This document shows positions 4,001 to 49,635 of a stretch of DNA of 64,000 nt, in pieces (the stretch's first letter is position 1; every line of letters begins with the position of its first letter). The position numbers were made by a program, and so were the translations under genes. Source of the stretch: a virus; the IMG/VR virus record IMGVR_UViG_3300029448_000001, positions 32,001 to 96,000 of that record. One strand, given 5' to 3'. Below the pieces are notes generated by a model. The model did not search any database. It saw only the letters and a program-made list of their open reading frames with translations, and had not been told where the DNA came from.

Positions 4001-7000
4001 ACACAGCACAAAGTTTTACTCATGGAATAACAACAGACAAACAACTTTGGGGTTGGGGAGATAATAGATGGGGATCAGTAGGAGATAACACGATAATAAA
4101 TCGTTCATCACCAGTTCAAATAGCAGGAAGTTGGAATGTTGTTGCGACTGGTGGTGGAAATAGAACACATAATTGTTTAGCAATCAAATCAGACGGAACA
4201 CTATGGTCTTGGGGTTATAATGCACAAGGTCAATTGGGTCTTAATGATGTTGTAGGAAGGTCATCACCAGTTCAAATAGGAACAAAATCTGATTGGACAA
4301 TCGTAGCCGCTAATTATTATAATGGAGCGGCGATTAATGCTAACAATGAATTATTTGTTTGGGGAGATGGTCCTCAAGGATCGATGGGAGATAATACAGC
4401 AGTATCTAAATCTTCTCCAATTCAAGTAACTGGTAGTTGGCAACAAGTCGTATCAGGTGATAGATGGTTCTGGGCTTTAAGTTCAGCGAATCAAGTGTTT
4501 GGTTGGGGTTATAATAACTACGGACATGTTTCAGCAGACACTACTAAAACTAATAAATCTCAACCAGTTCAAGTTGCTACTGGTAGCAGTTTTGCTTTCA
4601 TAGGTGCATTGTCAGGAACAGCATGTATGGGAGATACAAACGGAAAATTATTTGCAGTAGGCTATAATGGTCATGGTGCTGTTGGTGACGGAACTACTGC
4701 ACACAGGTCAACAGTTACCGCAATACTGACACAAAGAAATACTCCTAGAGCGTTTTCTGCCGCTTACTGGAATGAAGGTAGTATAGCGAGAGAAATAACA
4801 GGAGGTTATCATCACTGGCAAATGCTAGACAATTCTAATACATTGTTTGCATGGGGTCATGGAACTACTAATCAATTAGGTCAAATGGGAACAGGATTAA
4901 CAACTCCAAACAAATCTAGTCCAGTTCAAGTTTATGGAAATGATAGTTGGGTTCAAATTTGTGCAAGATTTAACAACGCTACCATAGATGGTGTTTTAGC
5001 AATTAAATCTGATGGAACGGCATGGATTCATGGCTACAATGGAAATGGAGTAGATACTTATGATGGTTCTTTAGGAATTAATGAAATTAATTCTACTTAT
5101 TATTCTCCTGTTCAAGTATCTCTTCCGTCAGGCTTTGATGCATCAGGTAAAAAACCTTGGTTTCACGGACATGGTGGATTTGTTTTTGAAGCAAATACAT
5201 TGTCTACAGCACAAACTGTTTATGGTTGGGGAAGAAATGAACACTCAACATTAGGCTCAAGATATTTTAAATATCATAGGTCTTCTCCAGTTTTAATAAA
5301 TTCTGGCAAAAAATATAAAGATATAAAAACATTTACAACTACAACTGCTGGAGGTCATAGTTTAGGAGTTGATGAAGACGATATACTTTGGTCATGGGGC
5401 GGTTCTTATACTACTAATCATGGAGAATTAGGATTCGCAACATTACTAGACAGATTCCATAGGTCATCTCCTACGCAAGTAAAACTAGCACATCAATGGA
5501 GACCAGAGTCAACAAAAGAAGTAGGAGTACCTGGAACTGAATGGGTTTCAGATATTGTTTCTGTATCGTGTGGTAGAAAATATGATGATTCTGCTTTAGG
5601 TAATATGTCAGTTCTTACAGAATCAGGTAATGTATTCTCATGGGGCCATAACGCAACTTACGGAGGTCTTGGAGATAATACAGTTGTAAATAGAAGCGAG
5701 CCTGTTCAATTAGGGTTTAATTTAGACGGACAATTTGAGGGAATTAGTTTTAGTGCATTATCTACTCATGCATTTGGTGGATTTGCAATCGGAAGTACAT
5801 CAACAACTAATTCAAAATATGGAGCAAATAGTTTATGGGGTTGGGGTAGAAATGATGTAGGAATGCTTTCAAAACAAGCTGAAGATGTAGTAGCATACTC
5901 ATTTCCTATTCAAGTAGATGGAGCGTTTCACGATCAATTCTGGACTAAATGGGACACTTATAGATATCATGGAATCGGAATCGCTAATAACGGAACTTTA
6001 TGGGTTTCAGGATATAATCAGAATGGGTGCTTAGGTCAAAATTTAAATCCAACAGAACTTGTAGCAAGGTCATCTCCAATTCAAGTAGGAACAGCAAATA
6101 ATTATATTGATGTTGCCGCTGGAGATTATAGTTGCTATGCAATTAAAGATGATGGTAAACTTTTTGCATGGGGGTATAATGCTCAAGGGCAACTAGGACA
6201 AAATGATACTCTAAATCGTTCATCACCTGTTCAAGTTAGACCTGGAACATCATTCACTTCAGTATCAACTTCTTATCGACATGTTTTAGCTACTACTTCA
6301 TCTAATAATATAGTGGCATGGGGAGAAAATACTTCTGGTCAATGTGGAATCAATAATGCGTTAAATGTATCTTCACCGACTCAAATTGGAATATCAACTT
6401 GGAGTAAAATTAAAGTAGGTATTCATCATTCTCTTGCAATAGGAAAAGGATTTTTAAATAATGCTGGAGGATTATACACATGGGGATATAATGTAGTTGG
6501 AGGAGTTTTAGGACAAAATAATGTTGCTAATCTATCTAATCCTACTCAAATTGGAACACACACAAATACAAATAAACTTGCGGCAGGATATCAAAATACT
6601 AAATGGATTAATACTGCAAATCAAATGTTTGTAGTTGGTTATAATACCTATGATGAATTAGGTCAAGGAGATACAGTCCATCGTTCATCGCCCGTTCAAC
6701 TTGCAGGTAGTTGGACTGAGGTAACAAGCGGTTATAATCATGCAATAGCAACTGCGGCTAATGGAACTATATTTGGTTGGGGTCTTAGAACAAGTGGTCA
6801 AGTAGGAGATGGAACTACAACTGCAAATACAAGAGACTTTGGAATACAATTAGTTGCAACAGCGAACAGTTATTATCACCCAAATCCTACAAATGTAAGT
6901 CTTCTTTATTCTGGAGTTTACAATTCAGGTATTATTGATGCAAATAATAAAAGATATGAATTTGGAACAAATGAGTGGGGTCATGCAGGAAGAATCTTCT

Positions 7001-7845
7001 GGGCAGTTGGTGGAGCCCATCACTCAAGTGCTGTTCAAGTTACAGGAAATAAACAATGGCAAACAATAGCTGTAAGAGATGCAGTAGGAGGTCAGGCTAT
7101 ACAGAAAGATACAAATAAATTATGGGCATGGGGATATAACTCTCATGGAGAATTAGGTTTGAATAATCAACTAAATCAATCTTCTCCAACTCAAATATGG
7201 GGAGATGATATAACTAGCGTAACTGATGGAATGCATCACACAATAGGGTGGACTGCTAATACAGGCAAGATGTATATGGTAGGATATAATGACCAAGGTC
7301 AAATAGGTCAAAATGATGTAAGTGTTAGTCGCTCAACACCAACTCAAATAACAGGTGAAGCAAACATACAAGGCATACATGTAAATGGAAATAATTGGTC
7401 AAATGTTTGGGGTGGAGAGAGAAGTGTTTTTGCAGAACTAAAACATTCTAACAAAAGAATTTATGCATGGGGATATGAGGGTATTAGGTCATTTGCAAAA
7501 CTTGGTTTAGGATATAGGAATGATTTTGTTTATACTCCTACGCCAATGGTAGGAAATTATTTTGGAAACACAGAGATTAGTAGATTTGAAACTTCTTTGC
7601 CTGCTCAAATTGGAAATTTAAATTACAAATATGTCGCCGCAGGAAATAATATTTCTTACGCTATATCAGACACAGATTTAATTTATTCATGGGGAAATAA
7701 TCGTGAAGGTCAACTTGGTAGATATGGAGAAGCGAATTCTGAATTTGAATCATTTAGTCCTGTACAAATAGGTGTCGTAGCAGACACCTATCGAAGAGTT
7801 TACTCAGGAAATACAGGAGCGTTTGGAATTAAGTTTAGAGTCTAA
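1012..7845 (+). CDS. Giant RCC1-repeat protein (2277 aa), probable virion/adhesin protein
   Basis: Dozens of (W)GxNxxGQLG...RSSPVQ(I/V)...W repeats. Confidence 0.88.
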   Translation: MTKKVFSINTPKKLGSANSVPKSWTQVQVAPTGIMAKDADDFLFAWGSSGYANTTIFGGAGPASSPTSGNNVFNLDSTELQPVPHQALGLPNAQAIKKLIFAGHGNDQTAYAITQDGDLYASGFNTYGVGGGRGGGPNFGDSTYNLNDVKQARSSFTQIFSGQRGVEHPEHTQLIDKGVHDIDSNRYAVGMIKNDGTLHTWGYNHLGQLGANSTQILYSPVQIGNERYRKVLMGMHDDQNSTMALRDDHTLYMWGSNEYGQLGITHGHTTWHTIDRSSPNQVTSGTGSFIHISSSGKHSAAIDSENRLYMWGYNNYGQLGVGNIANRSSPTQVPGSWSQVETGYDTTYALTTDNQLFAWGRKHVGSIPEHPFNANRSSPIALKGNNNNTGANVSFGLVSWTNIAAIDYGGIAVEATTNTAYVWGSNDVGQLGLGDSANKSSFVAIGTHNGGHLSNKSWYNVDAGPRNIILYDPDGKIYVSGGDYYGATGRRKSVNAQNNKRVYRSFPIQVSTVDESKWYYPQKIQTGSNTAFKEFSVGQNHGLAIDSNDKLWGWGNFAGRDFFANTTEHNSWKKIASAHTHSIGLTDDGEAYAWGENNWGQLGTGEKTHRSSPVQIPSEEGTSWIDVDAGTGYSALVRSDKTLWTMGRNEYGQLGPRMFANNTLYYGTTTGIYSHRSSPIQIGSHEGVRKYKSLGIGQHTSYALDEDGNVFAWGRNGSGSLGDMGPGGAVTSKSSPVQLTIAYKNDGSAHYGANNTFAGGGIPDEDNTFNVAGNFNARRFSAVDIVGSMADHAVILDEYGRTFHFGLNTWGPYGFNDIVSRSTPYLNTVFGQKSFAQVSLGSNYGMYLTHDGQLWTSGHNPDGRLGDNTVISRSSPVQISHPNSRSWSQVSAGFGQCYALDEDYKLWGWGRANMGRLGPSNNNQSSPVQTDAGFTRANMGVSVISMAAGGEYSGHVLSNNALYMYGTGTYGQLGKNDILASSSPIQIASDKTWKTIHTAQSFTHGITTDKQLWGWGDNRWGSVGDNTIINRSSPVQIAGSWNVVATGGGNRTHNCLAIKSDGTLWSWGYNAQGQLGLNDVVGRSSPVQIGTKSDWTIVAANYYNGAAINANNELFVWGDGPQGSMGDNTAVSKSSPIQVTGSWQQVVSGDRWFWALSSANQVFGWGYNNYGHVSADTTKTNKSQPVQVATGSSFAFIGALSGTACMGDTNGKLFAVGYNGHGAVGDGTTAHRSTVTAILTQRNTPRAFSAAYWNEGSIAREITGGYHHWQMLDNSNTLFAWGHGTTNQLGQMGTGLTTPNKSSPVQVYGNDSWVQICARFNNATIDGVLAIKSDGTAWIHGYNGNGVDTYDGSLGINEINSTYYSPVQVSLPSGFDASGKKPWFHGHGGFVFEANTLSTAQTVYGWGRNEHSTLGSRYFKYHRSSPVLINSGKKYKDIKTFTTTTAGGHSLGVDEDDILWSWGGSYTTNHGELGFATLLDRFHRSSPTQVKLAHQWRPESTKEVGVPGTEWVSDIVSVSCGRKYDDSALGNMSVLTESGNVFSWGHNATYGGLGDNTVVNRSEPVQLGFNLDGQFEGISFSALSTHAFGGFAIGSTSTTNSKYGANSLWGWGRNDVGMLSKQAEDVVAYSFPIQVDGAFHDQFWTKWDTYRYHGIGIANNGTLWVSGYNQNGCLGQNLNPTELVARSSPIQVGTANNYIDVAAGDYSCYAIKDDGKLFAWGYNAQGQLGQNDTLNRSSPVQVRPGTSFTSVSTSYRHVLATTSSNNIVAWGENTSGQCGINNALNVSSPTQIGISTWSKIKVGIHHSLAIGKGFLNNAGGLYTWGYNVVGGVLGQNNVANLSNPTQIGTHTNTNKLAAGYQNTKWINTANQMFVVGYNTYDELGQGDTVHRSSPVQLAGSWTEVTSGYNHAIATAANGTIFGWGLRTSGQVGDGTTTANTRDFGIQLVATANSYYHPNPTNVSLLYSGVYNSGIIDANNKRYEFGTNEWGHAGRIFWAVGGAHHSSAVQVTGNKQWQTIAVRDAVGGQAIQKDTNKLWAWGYNSHGELGLNNQLNQSSPTQIWGDDITSVTDGMHHTIGWTANTGKMYMVGYNDQGQIGQNDVSVSRSTPTQITGEANIQGIHVNGNNWSNVWGGERSVFAELKHSNKRIYAWGYEGIRSFAKLGLGYRNDFVYTPTPMVGNYFGNTEISRFETSLPAQIGNLNYKYVAAGNNISYAISDTDLIYSWGNNREGQLGRYGEANSEFESFSPVQIGVVADTYRRVYSGNTGAFGIKFRV

Positions 7846-7849
7846 TAAG

Positions 7850-8062
7850 GTAATTTCGTAGTTAGGTATTGTCTGGGCCTCTTAAAACGGAGGGTTTTCG
7901 TCCGCTGCCGACAACTTTTATTTCAGACAGTTGCTACTCGATCACTATAACACATCTGTCACTTACATTATAGGTCGTCATTTTTCCACCTAACTACTAT
8001 TTCGATTCTTTACGTTAGTTGTTTTCCCGACATTACGGTCGTTATAAAGAATCTCAACCATC
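7850..8062 (-). ncRNA. Putative structured non-coding RNA (~210 nt)
   Basis: Locally GC-richer, ORF-free region; helices GATTCTTTA/TAAAGAATC and GTAGTTAGGT/ACCTAACTAC plus inner hairpins; dedicated promoter upstream. Confidence 0.65.
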
Positions 8063-8068
8063 AAATAC

Positions 8069-8096
8069 AGTTTATCAAATCTACAAAATATGTCAA
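8069..8096 (-). promoter_or_regulatory. Sigma70-type promoter for the putative ncRNA
   Basis: TTGACA-N16-TAAACT with extended -10 TG on the minus strand. Confidence 0.65.
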
Positions 8097-8106
8097 GGGT
8101 ATTTAC

Positions 8107-8919
8107 TTAACTAATATTTTTGTTGCTTTTTAACAACGTAGTGGCTTTTTCTTTTATAGATTCATCTTTAAAACTTGACTGCGTAAAAACTTCATAAATT
8201 TTTTCTATCTTTTCTTTGTCTTCTGCATGTTCGATATACGCTAATCCTGTTTCTATAAAGTTTTTTGTATCTCTTTCTTTGTAGTAATGATTTACTAAAA
8301 ACCAAAGTGTCCAACAATTTGTAGGATTTTCTTCAAACTCTTCCCTTAACATTTTTACATAAAGTTCAGGTCTTTCTTTCTTCTTAAAATCTTGGTCGTG
8401 AATTAAATATATTAAATCATTATAAACTTCATTTTCAAGTTTAGGGTCATGCTTGTACGACCAGAACAAATGTTCATAGATAGGTTGTACCCAATGATAA
8501 TATTTTTTTCTATGAATTTTATTAGTTCCTAAACATTTAGGAGGACCTACACGAACTTCTTTTGTGTATATGTCTAATCTATCACATGCAATATTTGTTA
8601 CTGATGGAGTTTCTTTCATTGTTTTTTCCATCTCATCTAATACGTTGATAGAAAAGTATTCGTCTAAATCAGGAGAAAGACACCATTCAACATCTTTAGG
8701 TATCATGTTCAAATTGTAGTTTCTAGCTACGTTGAATTTCCATGGCGTAAAAGTTTTTTGTTCGACAATTATATTATCAGCTTTTTTAAATTCTTCATAT
8801 GTTCCATCTGTAGAACCTGTATCTAATATGACTCTGTAATCAAAATCTTTTGTATAGTAAAGCCACTTTTCAACATACTTTATTTCATTTTTACATATTG
8901 TATATGCGGCAGTTTTCAT
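8107..8919 (-). CDS. Glycosyltransferase family 2
   Basis: YTICKNE, LDTGSTDGT, FNVARN, DLDE motifs. Confidence 0.85.
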   Translation of the reverse strand: MKTAAYTICKNEIKYVEKWLYYTKDFDYRVILDTGSTDGTYEEFKKADNIIVEQKTFTPWKFNVARNYNLNMIPKDVEWCLSPDLDEYFSINVLDEMEKTMKETPSVTNIACDRLDIYTKEVRVGPPKCLGTNKIHRKKYYHWVQPIYEHLFWSYKHDPKLENEVYNDLIYLIHDQDFKKKERPELYVKMLREEFEENPTNCWTLWFLVNHYYKERDTKNFIETGLAYIEHAEDKEKIEKIYEVFTQSSFKDESIKEKATTLLKSNKNIS

Positions 8920-28660: not shown

Positions 28661-28668
28661 CATTTTTT

Positions 28669-28676
28669 TATAAATA
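28669..28676 (+). promoter_or_regulatory. Late promoter
   Basis: TATAAATA upstream of prohead core genes. Confidence 0.7.
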
Positions 28677-28713
28677 AATAAAAAATAAAATATATTAATA
28701 GGAGATTAACACA

Positions 28714-28896
28714 ATGAGCGACAGAGACAATCTTTTTAACATGCAATATTCGGCCGCTGAAGGTTCACCTAAAGACTTCAAAACAGCGTTGTCGCAAGAA
28801 CTTGAAAGTAGAATAAATAATATGCGAGAGAAAGAAAGAGTCTCACTAAGTAATGAAATTTTTAAATCTCAAGACGAAAAGGAAGCAGGAGAATGA
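28714..28896 (+). CDS. Prohead core protein, gp67-like
   Basis: Small helical protein, SD AGGAG, position before gp21. Confidence 0.55.
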   Translation: MSDRDNLFNMQYSAAEGSPKDFKTALSQELESRINNMREKERVSLSNEIFKSQDEKEAGE

Positions 28897-29183
28897 TACA
28901 TTTTAAAGACTTCATATTAGAAGAGAAACCAAATGCGAAACCTAAAGCTAAAGGGGAAGCAGACTTTGTTGCACAGCATGAAGTAGAAATGACAGACAAA
29001 GAAGACCAAGCAAAAAATTCAGCGAAAGTGGTCACAAAGAAATTTAAGAATAAAGCAGATAAAGAAAATGCTGTAAAAATGGGAGAAGAGGCGATAGATG
29101 AAAAAGAACTTTCTCCTCAAGAAAAGAAAAAGAAAAGTATACAGCAAATGAGAAAATTTGTTAGACAAAAAAAAGGTCATTAA
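28893..29183 (+). CDS. Small charged prohead core/internal protein (gp68 position)
   Basis: MIHFKDFILEE N-terminus; synteny. Confidence 0.5.
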   Translation: MIHFKDFILEEKPNAKPKAKGEADFVAQHEVEMTDKEDQAKNSAKVVTKKFKNKADKENAVKMGEEAIDEKELSPQEKKKKSIQQMRKFVRQKKGH

Positions 29184-29193
29184 GGAGTAATAA

Positions 29194-45948: not shown

Positions 45949-46232
45949 TAGAATACAAATATGATGAAAATAATTCTTTAAGTGAAATAAAAGAATATAT
46001 TGATAAAACTTATGGGCAACATTATTCAAAAAATAATTTTCAGGCTACTGAATTTATAATTGATGGTGGACATGGTGAAGGTTTTTGTATCGGCAACATT
46101 ATGAAATACGCTCAACGATACGGAAAAAAGAATGGTAGGGATAAAAATGACTTACTAAAAGTGATTCATTATGCGATAATAATGTTACACGTTCATAACT
46201 TAGCGAAAGGAAATGATAATGAAATTAAGTGA
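45945..46232 (+). CDS. DUF3310-like putative nucleotide kinase
   Basis: HYS, GFCIGNIMKYAQRYGKKNG, DLLKVIHY. Confidence 0.75.
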   Translation: MIEYKYDENNSLSEIKEYIDKTYGQHYSKNNFQATEFIIDGGHGEGFCIGNIMKYAQRYGKKNGRDKNDLLKVIHYAIIMLHVHNLAKGNDNEIK

Positions 46233-49087: not shown

Positions 49088-49118
49088 TTTTATAATATTT
49101 TTTTTGTAGAGTATAGTT

Positions 49119-49331
49119 ATGGCTAATAATAAAAAAGTTTATGATTGCGATTTGCACTTGAGAATCACAAAAAAACAAAGAGATGCATTAGACTTTGTGG
49201 CTGACCAGAAAAATGTCAGGCCTTCTCAAGTTGTGAGAGAAATCTTGAATCAATCTCTTCCTAATTTAGAGAGAGATGTAAGAACCCAGAAGGGTGTAGT
49301 AGTTGATCCATTGAGTGGTATTTTTTCTTAA
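49119..49331 (+). CDS. Ribbon-helix-helix-like DNA-binding protein
   Basis: LHLRITKKQRDALDFVA...PSQVVREIL; promoter TTGATT-N17-TAGAGT at 49084-49112. Confidence 0.6.
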   Translation: MANNKKVYDCDLHLRITKKQRDALDFVADQKNVRPSQVVREILNQSLPNLERDVRTQKGVVVDPLSGIFS

Positions 49332-49352
49332 TTTTATATCATAGGAGTCTTT

Positions 49353-49553
49353 ATGAAAAAGCTGTCCCAGTTTCAAAAAGTCCTCAGTTACTTGCGAGGC
49401 AAAAAACGTACTTTGACAAGGTCTCAAGCCATGCAAAGATTCAAGGTCAAAAATTTACCTGCTAGAATTAGTGAAATAAGACAAGCTGGTTATAAGGTAA
49501 ATAAAGTGAAAAATAGAGTAGGAACAACTGCATATTCTATAGTTTCACGCTAA
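49353..49553 (+). CDS. Small winged-helix DNA-binding protein
   Basis: SQFQKVLSYL...LTRSQA..RF.V.NLPARISEIRQAGY. Confidence 0.7.
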   Translation: MKKLSQFQKVLSYLRGKKRTLTRSQAMQRFKVKNLPARISEIRQAGYKVNKVKNRVGTTAYSIVSR

Positions 49554-49560
49554 TTTTTGT

Positions 49561-49635
49561 TATAAATAAAAGCGATACGCCTACCAAGGGTATCGCTTTT
49601 TATTTTATTAACTCGCTTAATTTAAGGAGACTATT
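49561..49635 (+). promoter_or_regulatory. hsp20 leader: late promoter, terminator-like hairpin and ROSE-like SD-sequestering hairpin
   Basis: TATAAATA; AAAAGCGATAC/GTATCGCTTTT stem; CTC-G-CTTA pairs with TAAG-GAG. Confidence 0.65.

Follow-up and report, generated by a model that had tools for sequence, protein, structure and literature searches.

Phage T4 makes two small folded non-coding RNAs, RNAC (species 1, 139 nt) and RNAD (species 2, 119 nt), which were sequenced in the 1970s. Both share a transcription unit with tRNAs and adjoin tRNA-Arg, and their release by the tRNA-processing machinery is established; we know of no function for either of them. Other phage-borne RNAs, GOLLD and ROOL, are elaborately folded, measure 500-800 nt and often lie beside tRNA genes. 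In marine T4-like phages, described structured RNAs include the manA motif (RF01745), of about 190 nt (Weinberg et al. 2010, PMC2864571), and the two-piece tmRNA located behind an early promoter in phages Melnitz and Mosig (PMC9004378). In addition, Fremin, Bhatt and Kyrpides reported in 2023 a set of 10,006 unnamed candidate structured RNAs of IMG/VR viruses (PMC10690425), which come from the same data source as the RNA described here and are the same kind of object. The main text of that study names no tRNA-Met-linked motif of this kind, and our RNA family may be among its unnamed candidates.

The window analyzed here, a stretch of 64,000 nucleotides, comes from an IMG/VR virus record of 144 kb that is 80% complete. 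By its genes (tail sheath, portal, gp23-type capsid protein and family-B DNA polymerase), the source is a T4-like myophage, and its capsid protein is 64-65% identical to the counterparts of Methylophilales phage Melnitz and Pelagibacter phage Mosig. The locus of interest is a 261-nt gap (positions 7846-8106) between two converging genes. One flank is the plus-strand gene of a 2277-aa RCC1-repeat protein, and the other is a minus-strand sugar operon (HldE-like kinase/adenylyltransferase, epimerase, GT25 and GT2), whose last gene, encoding the family-2 glycosyltransferase GT2, borders the gap. This gap encodes a real, conserved, structured and independently promoted non-coding RNA gene on the minus strand, and its family is absent from Rfam. 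On that strand of the window, no gene lies 3' of the RNA, only the antisense of the RCC1-repeat gene. In agreement with the sequence-only reading, which had noted the lack of an open reading frame and a raised G+C content, the longest stop-to-stop frame in the window RNA is 37 codons, and no frame exceeds 52 codons in any family member, which are thus non-coding. G+C is 36.8% in the gap and 42.1% in the core domain of the RNA, versus 32.2% for the window and 17.6-36% for all other gaps of at least 50 nt, among which this gap ranks highest. Three further long gaps of 264-548 nt (28661-29193, 49088-49635 and 45949-46212), with no ORF of at least 100 aa, have a G+C content of 28-33%, below that of the RNA gap. 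A diversity-generating retroelement template repeat aimed at the RCC1 gene was also considered and rejected: no direct repeat joins the gap to the 3' end of the gene, and the repeats found are all RCC1 blades.

The RNA was then compared with known classes. Rfam 15 gave no match in the window at gathering thresholds and none in 7700-8250 at E<=10, and in the loci of eight relatives it matched only the tRNA. The sequence-only reading had suggested kinship with manA, with wcaG as a second candidate. Like the window RNA, manA is a structured RNA of marine T4-like phages, the habitat and phage type are the same, Mosig, a relative of the window phage, has one, and sugar-nucleotide genes lie upstream of the window RNA on the same strand. 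However, this kinship did not hold. The manA model (gathering threshold 55.2 bits) found nothing in the whole record at E<=1, yet it scored 188 bits in cyanophage P-RSM6 and 64 bits in Mosig as positive controls, and the wcaG model (RF01761, gathering threshold 42 bits) gave no match, with no positive control for this class among the phages searched. Moreover, manA lies in the 5' UTRs of sugar, nucleotide and photosynthesis genes, whereas the window RNA has no downstream gene and is located downstream, not upstream, of the sugar genes. That the RNA is a diverged member of either riboswitch-candidate class is therefore extremely improbable. The manA-class RNA of Mosig (MT647606.1, 108164-108371, 64 bits) precedes a rubrerythrin gene and is unannotated in the record.

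Other classes gave a similar outcome. No tmRNA was detected by ARAGORN in the window or the whole record, nor by Rfam. GOLLD and ROOL are several times larger than the window RNA and had no Rfam match in the window. A Y RNA (YrlA) was rejected, as the record has no TROVE (Ro60/Rsr) domain and no Rfam match. The closest analogues of the family are T4 RNAC and RNAD, likewise small folded non-coding RNAs of a T4-like phage; the folds differ, and an nhmmer search of the T4 tRNA region with the family profile returned only noise at E>=7.

To collect homologues, motif scans of viral and metagenome contigs were combined with a profile HMM, which served as a filter, and with a covariance model, R1. 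The first scan, with the two arms of the closing helix against viral contigs, returned three loci that are 73-76% identical over positions 7854-8007 of the window; by blastn, the window copy is 73-76% identical to the L007-L009 copies over 154-170 nt, the nearest being at about 75%. When the three loci were aligned, conservation was seen to extend to the promoter, the leader and the 5' domain. Motif scans and the HMM yielded 27 contigs with 16 distinct sequences, all from marine samples, and a search with the 100-aa gene that lies downstream in relatives added a diverged member, L396 (with L398). Two more viral scans added no members beyond these. In total, the family comprises 28 marine viral and metagenomic contigs, several of which are the same record in two collections, with 17 distinct sequences in five forms: a long form, a short form missing one inner hairpin, the minimal forms L011/L137 and L396, and the window copy. 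Both minimal forms lack the entire 5' domain, and the window copy is the most diverged of the members that keep it. The family defined by R1 has a promoter-proximal leader with GUUGA, the P1 closing helix and the P3 arm, all of which are found in the window copy; its R1 score of 191.5 bits (E ~1e-34) is partly circular, as the window is one of the ten training sequences, and the blastn identities to L007-L009 support its membership independently.

Beyond these contigs, blastn searches of GenBank phages with the window copy and a relative's copy gave no match. R1 detected no member in Melnitz, Mosig or P-RSM6 either: its only matches, in Melnitz-3, Mosig and P-RSM6, reached at most 20 bits, lacked the core and were spurious. 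A motif scan of bacterial genomes gave chance matches only, and a scan with the P2-loop motif matched a conserved protein-coding gene instead. The contigs that carry the family also resemble Pelagibacter myophages. We conclude that the family is small and narrow, and belongs to uncultured marine T4-like myophages related to Mosig and Melnitz, which are Pelagibacter and OM43 phages.

The RNA has its own promoter. The minus-strand element TTGACA-N16-TAAACT proposed from the sequence is indeed present: a sigma-70-type (early-class) promoter at 8069-8096, with the -35 hexamer TTGACA at 8096-8091, a 16-nt spacer and an extended -10 element TGaTAAACT at 8077-8069 (TAAACT, 8074-8069), which places the predicted start of the RNA near G8062. 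The -35 hexamer is perfect and the site is the best promoter-like match in the surrounding 2 kb; such matches are no more frequent in the window than in shuffles. All family forms carry a -35 hexamer TTGAC[A/T] and a -10 hexamer (TAAACT, TAGAAT, TAAAAT, TATAAT or TATACT) at a fixed distance from the leader, and the spacer between them diverges. Constant hexamers around a diverged spacer are the signature of a working promoter. In T4-like phages, sigma-70-type promoters serve early transcription by the unmodified host polymerase, and it is from this promoter type that we infer the timing: the RNA would be transcribed early, by the unmodified host polymerase. A strong sigma-70-type promoter (TTGACT, 17 nt, TATACT) is also located outside the window (C1:136936-137000), directly after the record's own version of the 100-aa gene that lies 3' of the RNA in relatives, indicating that this promoter class is used elsewhere in the genome.

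A conserved 5' leader follows the predicted start (8054-8062, minus strand), reading GAUGGUUGA in the window and AACAGUUGA in relatives. Its conserved part is GUUGAG, or GUUGA in the two minimal forms; GUUGA is invariant in 10 aligned sequences, including that of L011, which has no 5' domain, and is also found in L396. The leader is complementary to CAACUG in the core, and the pairing is possible in 100% of the alignment cells through G-U changes.

Two domains follow the leader. The optional 5' domain (7999-8053, minus strand) consists of a 9-bp helix (8053-8045 with 8012-8004, GATTCTTTA pairing with TAAAGAATC), a CGAC/GUCG hairpin (8041-8038 with 8031-8028) and a conserved 3' end, AAUCGAAAU. 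The sequence-only reading had closed the domain with this helix, which is present in the window copy but is not a feature of the family: in relatives, no more than 3+3 pairs around a 3x3 internal loop would be possible, and two forms, L011/L137 and L396, have no such domain. Relatives retain the hairpin in the form AAGAU/GUCUU, in which, reading the alignment by eye, a C-G pair has become A-U. The core domain (7858-7997, minus strand) is a multi-branch junction with A-rich joining strands, closed by the 11 pairs of helix P1 (7997-7987 with 7868-7858). The perfect 10-bp closing helix proposed earlier (GTAGTTAGGT with ACCTAACTAC, 7997-7988 and 7867-7858) lies within P1 and shows covariation: three pairs of P1 are changed on both sides, and further G-U/A-U changes are found.

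Inside the core, the variable module (7945-7979, minus strand) comprises GACGAC (7979-7974) and hairpin P1a, CUAUAA/UUAUAG (7973-7968 with 7950-7945). The CTATAA/TTATAG stem of the sequence-only reading is thus found as the base of a variable hairpin, in place of which long relatives have another stem of greater length, built on the CUA/UAG base that all share and showing changes from U-A to U-G. The whole module is absent from the short and minimal forms. The loop of P1a holds GACAG (7960-7956), which had been proposed to form a pseudoknot with CTGTC (7930-7926). The two segments are complementary in the window copy, but the GACAG loop is replaced in long relatives and absent from short and minimal ones, so that the proposed pseudoknot is not conserved in the family. 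Next comes the candidate hairpin P2 (7911-7934, minus strand), GCAACU/AGUUGU with a conserved 12-nt loop, GUCUGAAAUAAA. Its CAACT/AGTTG stem (7933-7929 with 7916-7912), also part of the original model, is present and pairs in 100% of cells; however, its changes are one-sided (G-U) only and it has rival pairings. The P3 arm (7876-7909, minus strand) combines an outer GGC/GCC helix (7909-7907 with 7878-7876), an inner helix AGCGGA/UCCGUU (7906-7901 with 7891-7886), the loop CGAAAACCC and a 7-nt bulge, UUAAGAG. Three pairs of the inner helix are changed on both sides, in support of the CGGA/TCCG stem (7904-7901 with 7891-7888) that had been recognized in the sequence. An alternative CCUC/GAGG hairpin in P3 was rejected, its 3' partner varying freely.

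How strong is the case for this fold? The fold z-score of the window copy is -1.68 over 230 nt and -3.08 for the core alone, and the cores of relatives score -3.9 and -3.6; the window sequence by itself thus gives weak to moderate evidence beyond chance. Since these single-sequence statistics are modest, the case rests on comparison with relatives. When 14 distinct sequences were aligned to the model, 99.2% of cells were standard pairs, versus 27-56% with the partners slid by 1-3 columns. Compensatory changes among homologues had been named as the check on the proposed fold, and the aligned sequences supplied them: six pairs, split evenly between P1 and the inner helix of P3, carry two-sided changes, a number reached in 0 of 500 shuffles, in an alignment that was fitted to the model and in which only about five lineages vary, with few independent events. 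Core-only MAFFT alignments, which misplace the 5' strand of P1 in short forms, were left out. As the most diverged copy, that of the window supplies covariation. P1, P2, P3 and P1a all contain G-U pairs, each of which would read as an A-C mismatch if the opposite strand were transcribed, demonstrating that the RNA is read from the minus strand of the window. Taken together, the promoter hexamers, leader, helices and six compensatory pairs kept by the homologues settle the reality of the RNA, and bear out the original proposal of a stand-alone, independently promoted, structured non-coding RNA of about 210 nt on the minus strand. The family is modular: its functional unit is the core of about 110 nt, to which the 5' domain and one hairpin are joined as dispensable modules.

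The center of the core, around P2, has at least three mutually exclusive pairings. CAACUG can pair either with the downstream AGUUG, forming P2, or with the AGUUG of the leader, forming a pseudoknot, and both pairings are possible in 100% of cells, with only G-U changes. The 3' strand of P2, GUUGUC, is a hub that can pair with CAAC(U), with GACGAC in long forms, or with GACAA (7873-7869), which extends P3. The GUUGUC/GACAA pairing is preserved in L396 through a U-A to U-G change. The thermodynamic ensemble is split, P2 and the extended P3 competing with each other. In L011, the leader and P1 are separated by a single nucleotide, which on geometric grounds makes a pseudoknot unlikely when P1 is fully formed. 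It is possible that the center of the core is switch-like. The RNA would then work in trans as a conformational switch in which the GUUGUC hub picks among GACGAC, CAACU and GACAA, the leader can capture CAACUG as a pseudoknot, and the fold is selected by a small molecule or by a factor from either host or phage. In the early phase of infection, such an RNA might be a sensor, or a decoy for a host enzyme of defence or RNA processing. We regard this trans-acting switch as unlikely. If true, it would add a new class to the known phage regulatory RNAs; the hosts concerned, probably SAR11- or OM43-type bacteria, lean heavily on RNA-based control.

We next consider where the transcript ends and whether the element could belong to its neighbors. 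In relatives, 5-9 consecutive U residues begin 5 nt beyond P1, a run that the window copy lacks. In the window, a 10-bp hairpin followed by UUUG (7765-7791, minus strand; z-score of the region, -3.4) lies antisense to the last RCC1-repeat codons and is a possible terminator, which could end the RNA only if transcription extends for about 300 nt; this hairpin is not conserved in relatives. With no terminator directly after P1 and this strong hairpin on the RNA strand, within the 3' end of the RCC1 gene, the transcript could run into the last 80 nt of that gene and act in the window phage as an antisense regulator by pairing with its mRNA. We find this very improbable: such an arrangement is specific to this genome and, with no converging gene in relatives, cannot be the function of the family, and the hairpin is equally explicable as a feature of the coding sequence.

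The element could also be a 3' UTR, terminator or stabilizer common to the converging RCC1-repeat (plus) and glycosyltransferase (minus) operons rather than a gene. It sits in a gap between convergent genes, a weak hairpin resembling a terminator is located on the plus strand (7878-7893), and no terminator is found from the GT2 stop codon to the RNA. By contrast, homologues have their own promoter and sit between co-directional genes, away from convergent junctions; at five loci with GT2 relatives, close homologues included, nothing similar lies downstream of GT2; the G-U pairs fix the minus strand; and P1 of the window copy is not followed by a U-run. A shared 3' element is thus quite improbable. 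As a caveat on the reading as an independent gene, the late glycosyltransferase operon upstream has no obvious terminator, and the RNA may in addition arise as the 3' tail of its transcript.

Relatives place the RNA in a different setting. In eight of ten viral loci, and in L396, a tRNA-Met(CAT) gene lies on the same strand, 10-130 nt downstream of the RNA; L015-type loci lack it. At L009-, L011- and L396-type loci, the gap of 10-25 nt leaves no room for a separate tRNA promoter, so that both are probably on one transcript. In most relatives, the RNA would be the first product of a promoter-RNA-tRNA-Met transcript, and it would probably be released by host tRNA-processing enzymes, a route established for T4 RNAC and RNAD that we infer for the family RNA. 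The parallel with the T4 RNAs, in which tRNA-Arg takes the place of tRNA-Met, is incomplete: RNAC ends in a T-arm-like hairpin that the family RNA lacks, RNAC and RNAD lie downstream of tRNAs whereas the family RNA lies upstream, directly behind its promoter, and the window copy has no tRNA neighbor at all.

Two further features were observed at these loci. Many relatives have a second folded element of about 65-95 nt between the RNA and tRNA-Met (L008:2645-2752, minus strand; L015:3661-3725), with GUUUGUUGAAG/CUUCAACAAAC as its closing pairs and a U-rich run after it; in L015 the closing pairs are GGAG/CUCC, a compensatory change. It may represent another small RNA, or else an insulator similar to a terminator. 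Just upstream of the RNA promoter, L009 (955-1500) and L137 (9554-10090) encode a ClpP-like/head-maturation-protease-like protein of 180 aa and a 59-60-aa ORF.

The window phage carries the promoter and RNA at another locus. Its record, 144 kb and 80% complete, contains no tRNA and one copy of the RNA. At a different place, the record holds a homologue, 73% identical, of the 100-aa gene that relatives have 3' of the cassette; this homologue is directly preceded by another ORF, with no RNA upstream. With this homologue lacking the RNA upstream, and the RNA located elsewhere, the promoter and RNA behave as a self-contained cassette that has changed place. Here the cassette would operate without a tRNA.

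These observations bear on whether the RNA is a cis-acting leader, a riboswitch or attenuator controlling read-through into tRNA-Met and small early genes, of which the window copy would be an orphan without a target. In relatives, the RNA does head a co-directional operon, with the run of 5-9 U after P1; the competition of the leader AGUUG and the P2 3'-strand AGUUG for CAACUG, with two more partners for GUUGUC, is switch-like; and the conserved junction nucleotides are aptamer-like. In the window, however, there is no same-strand downstream gene, yet the promoter, leader and helices are intact, and the tRNA is missing in L015-type relatives. Furthermore, the U-run lies 5 nt from the P1 stem and abuts the tRNA in L011 and L396, where efficient termination would silence the tRNA, and no Rfam riboswitch matches. 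The persistence of the RNA at a locus with neither a tRNA nor a gene after it speaks against a purely cis-regulatory role, and in favor of a function of its own, independent of the tRNA and of any downstream gene. We therefore consider a cis-acting leader unlikely.

Sequencing runs were searched with the commonest relative, L014. Part of it was found in 20 runs, 12 of which are recorded as RNA. Contigs from four RNA libraries, each of a different study, were placed on the 1.6 kb around the L014 copy. They map to 6194-6841 alone, a segment that comprises the tRNA, the RNA and some 280 nt upstream, and none falls on either flank (5600-6190 or 6842-7200), which is not evidence of absent transcription. 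One 136-nt piece inside the RNA has sequencing adapters at both ends and a depth of 21. These contigs are assemblies that show neither ends nor strand, and in two runs they extend upstream of the predicted start; they are compatible with an expressed small RNA and are no proof of a discrete transcript. RNA-library contigs of L014 also span the small-ORF region.

Taken together, we favor, with a probability of roughly 0.6, the reading of the whole locus as a minus-strand non-coding RNA gene that extends from about 8062 to about 7854, possibly to 7791-7765, has its own promoter, belongs to an uncatalogued family and yields a stable trans-acting RNA. The most likely mode of action is that of a stable trans-acting RNA made early in infection: the product would act in trans as a stable folded RNA, and our guess for its molecular role is a protein-binding or decoy RNA in the early phase.

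The relatives of the window phage infect SAR11 and OM43, ocean bacteria with streamlined genomes, and to our knowledge hardly any information exists on non-coding RNAs in their phages. In one respect the family is one further orphan RNA motif among thousands. However, these phages keep the RNA while shifting it between loci and gaining or losing its modules. The RNA is compact and modular, its promoter is clear, and it is a tractable candidate for addressing the role of phage stable RNAs, a question that has stood since the species 1 and species 2 RNAs of T4.
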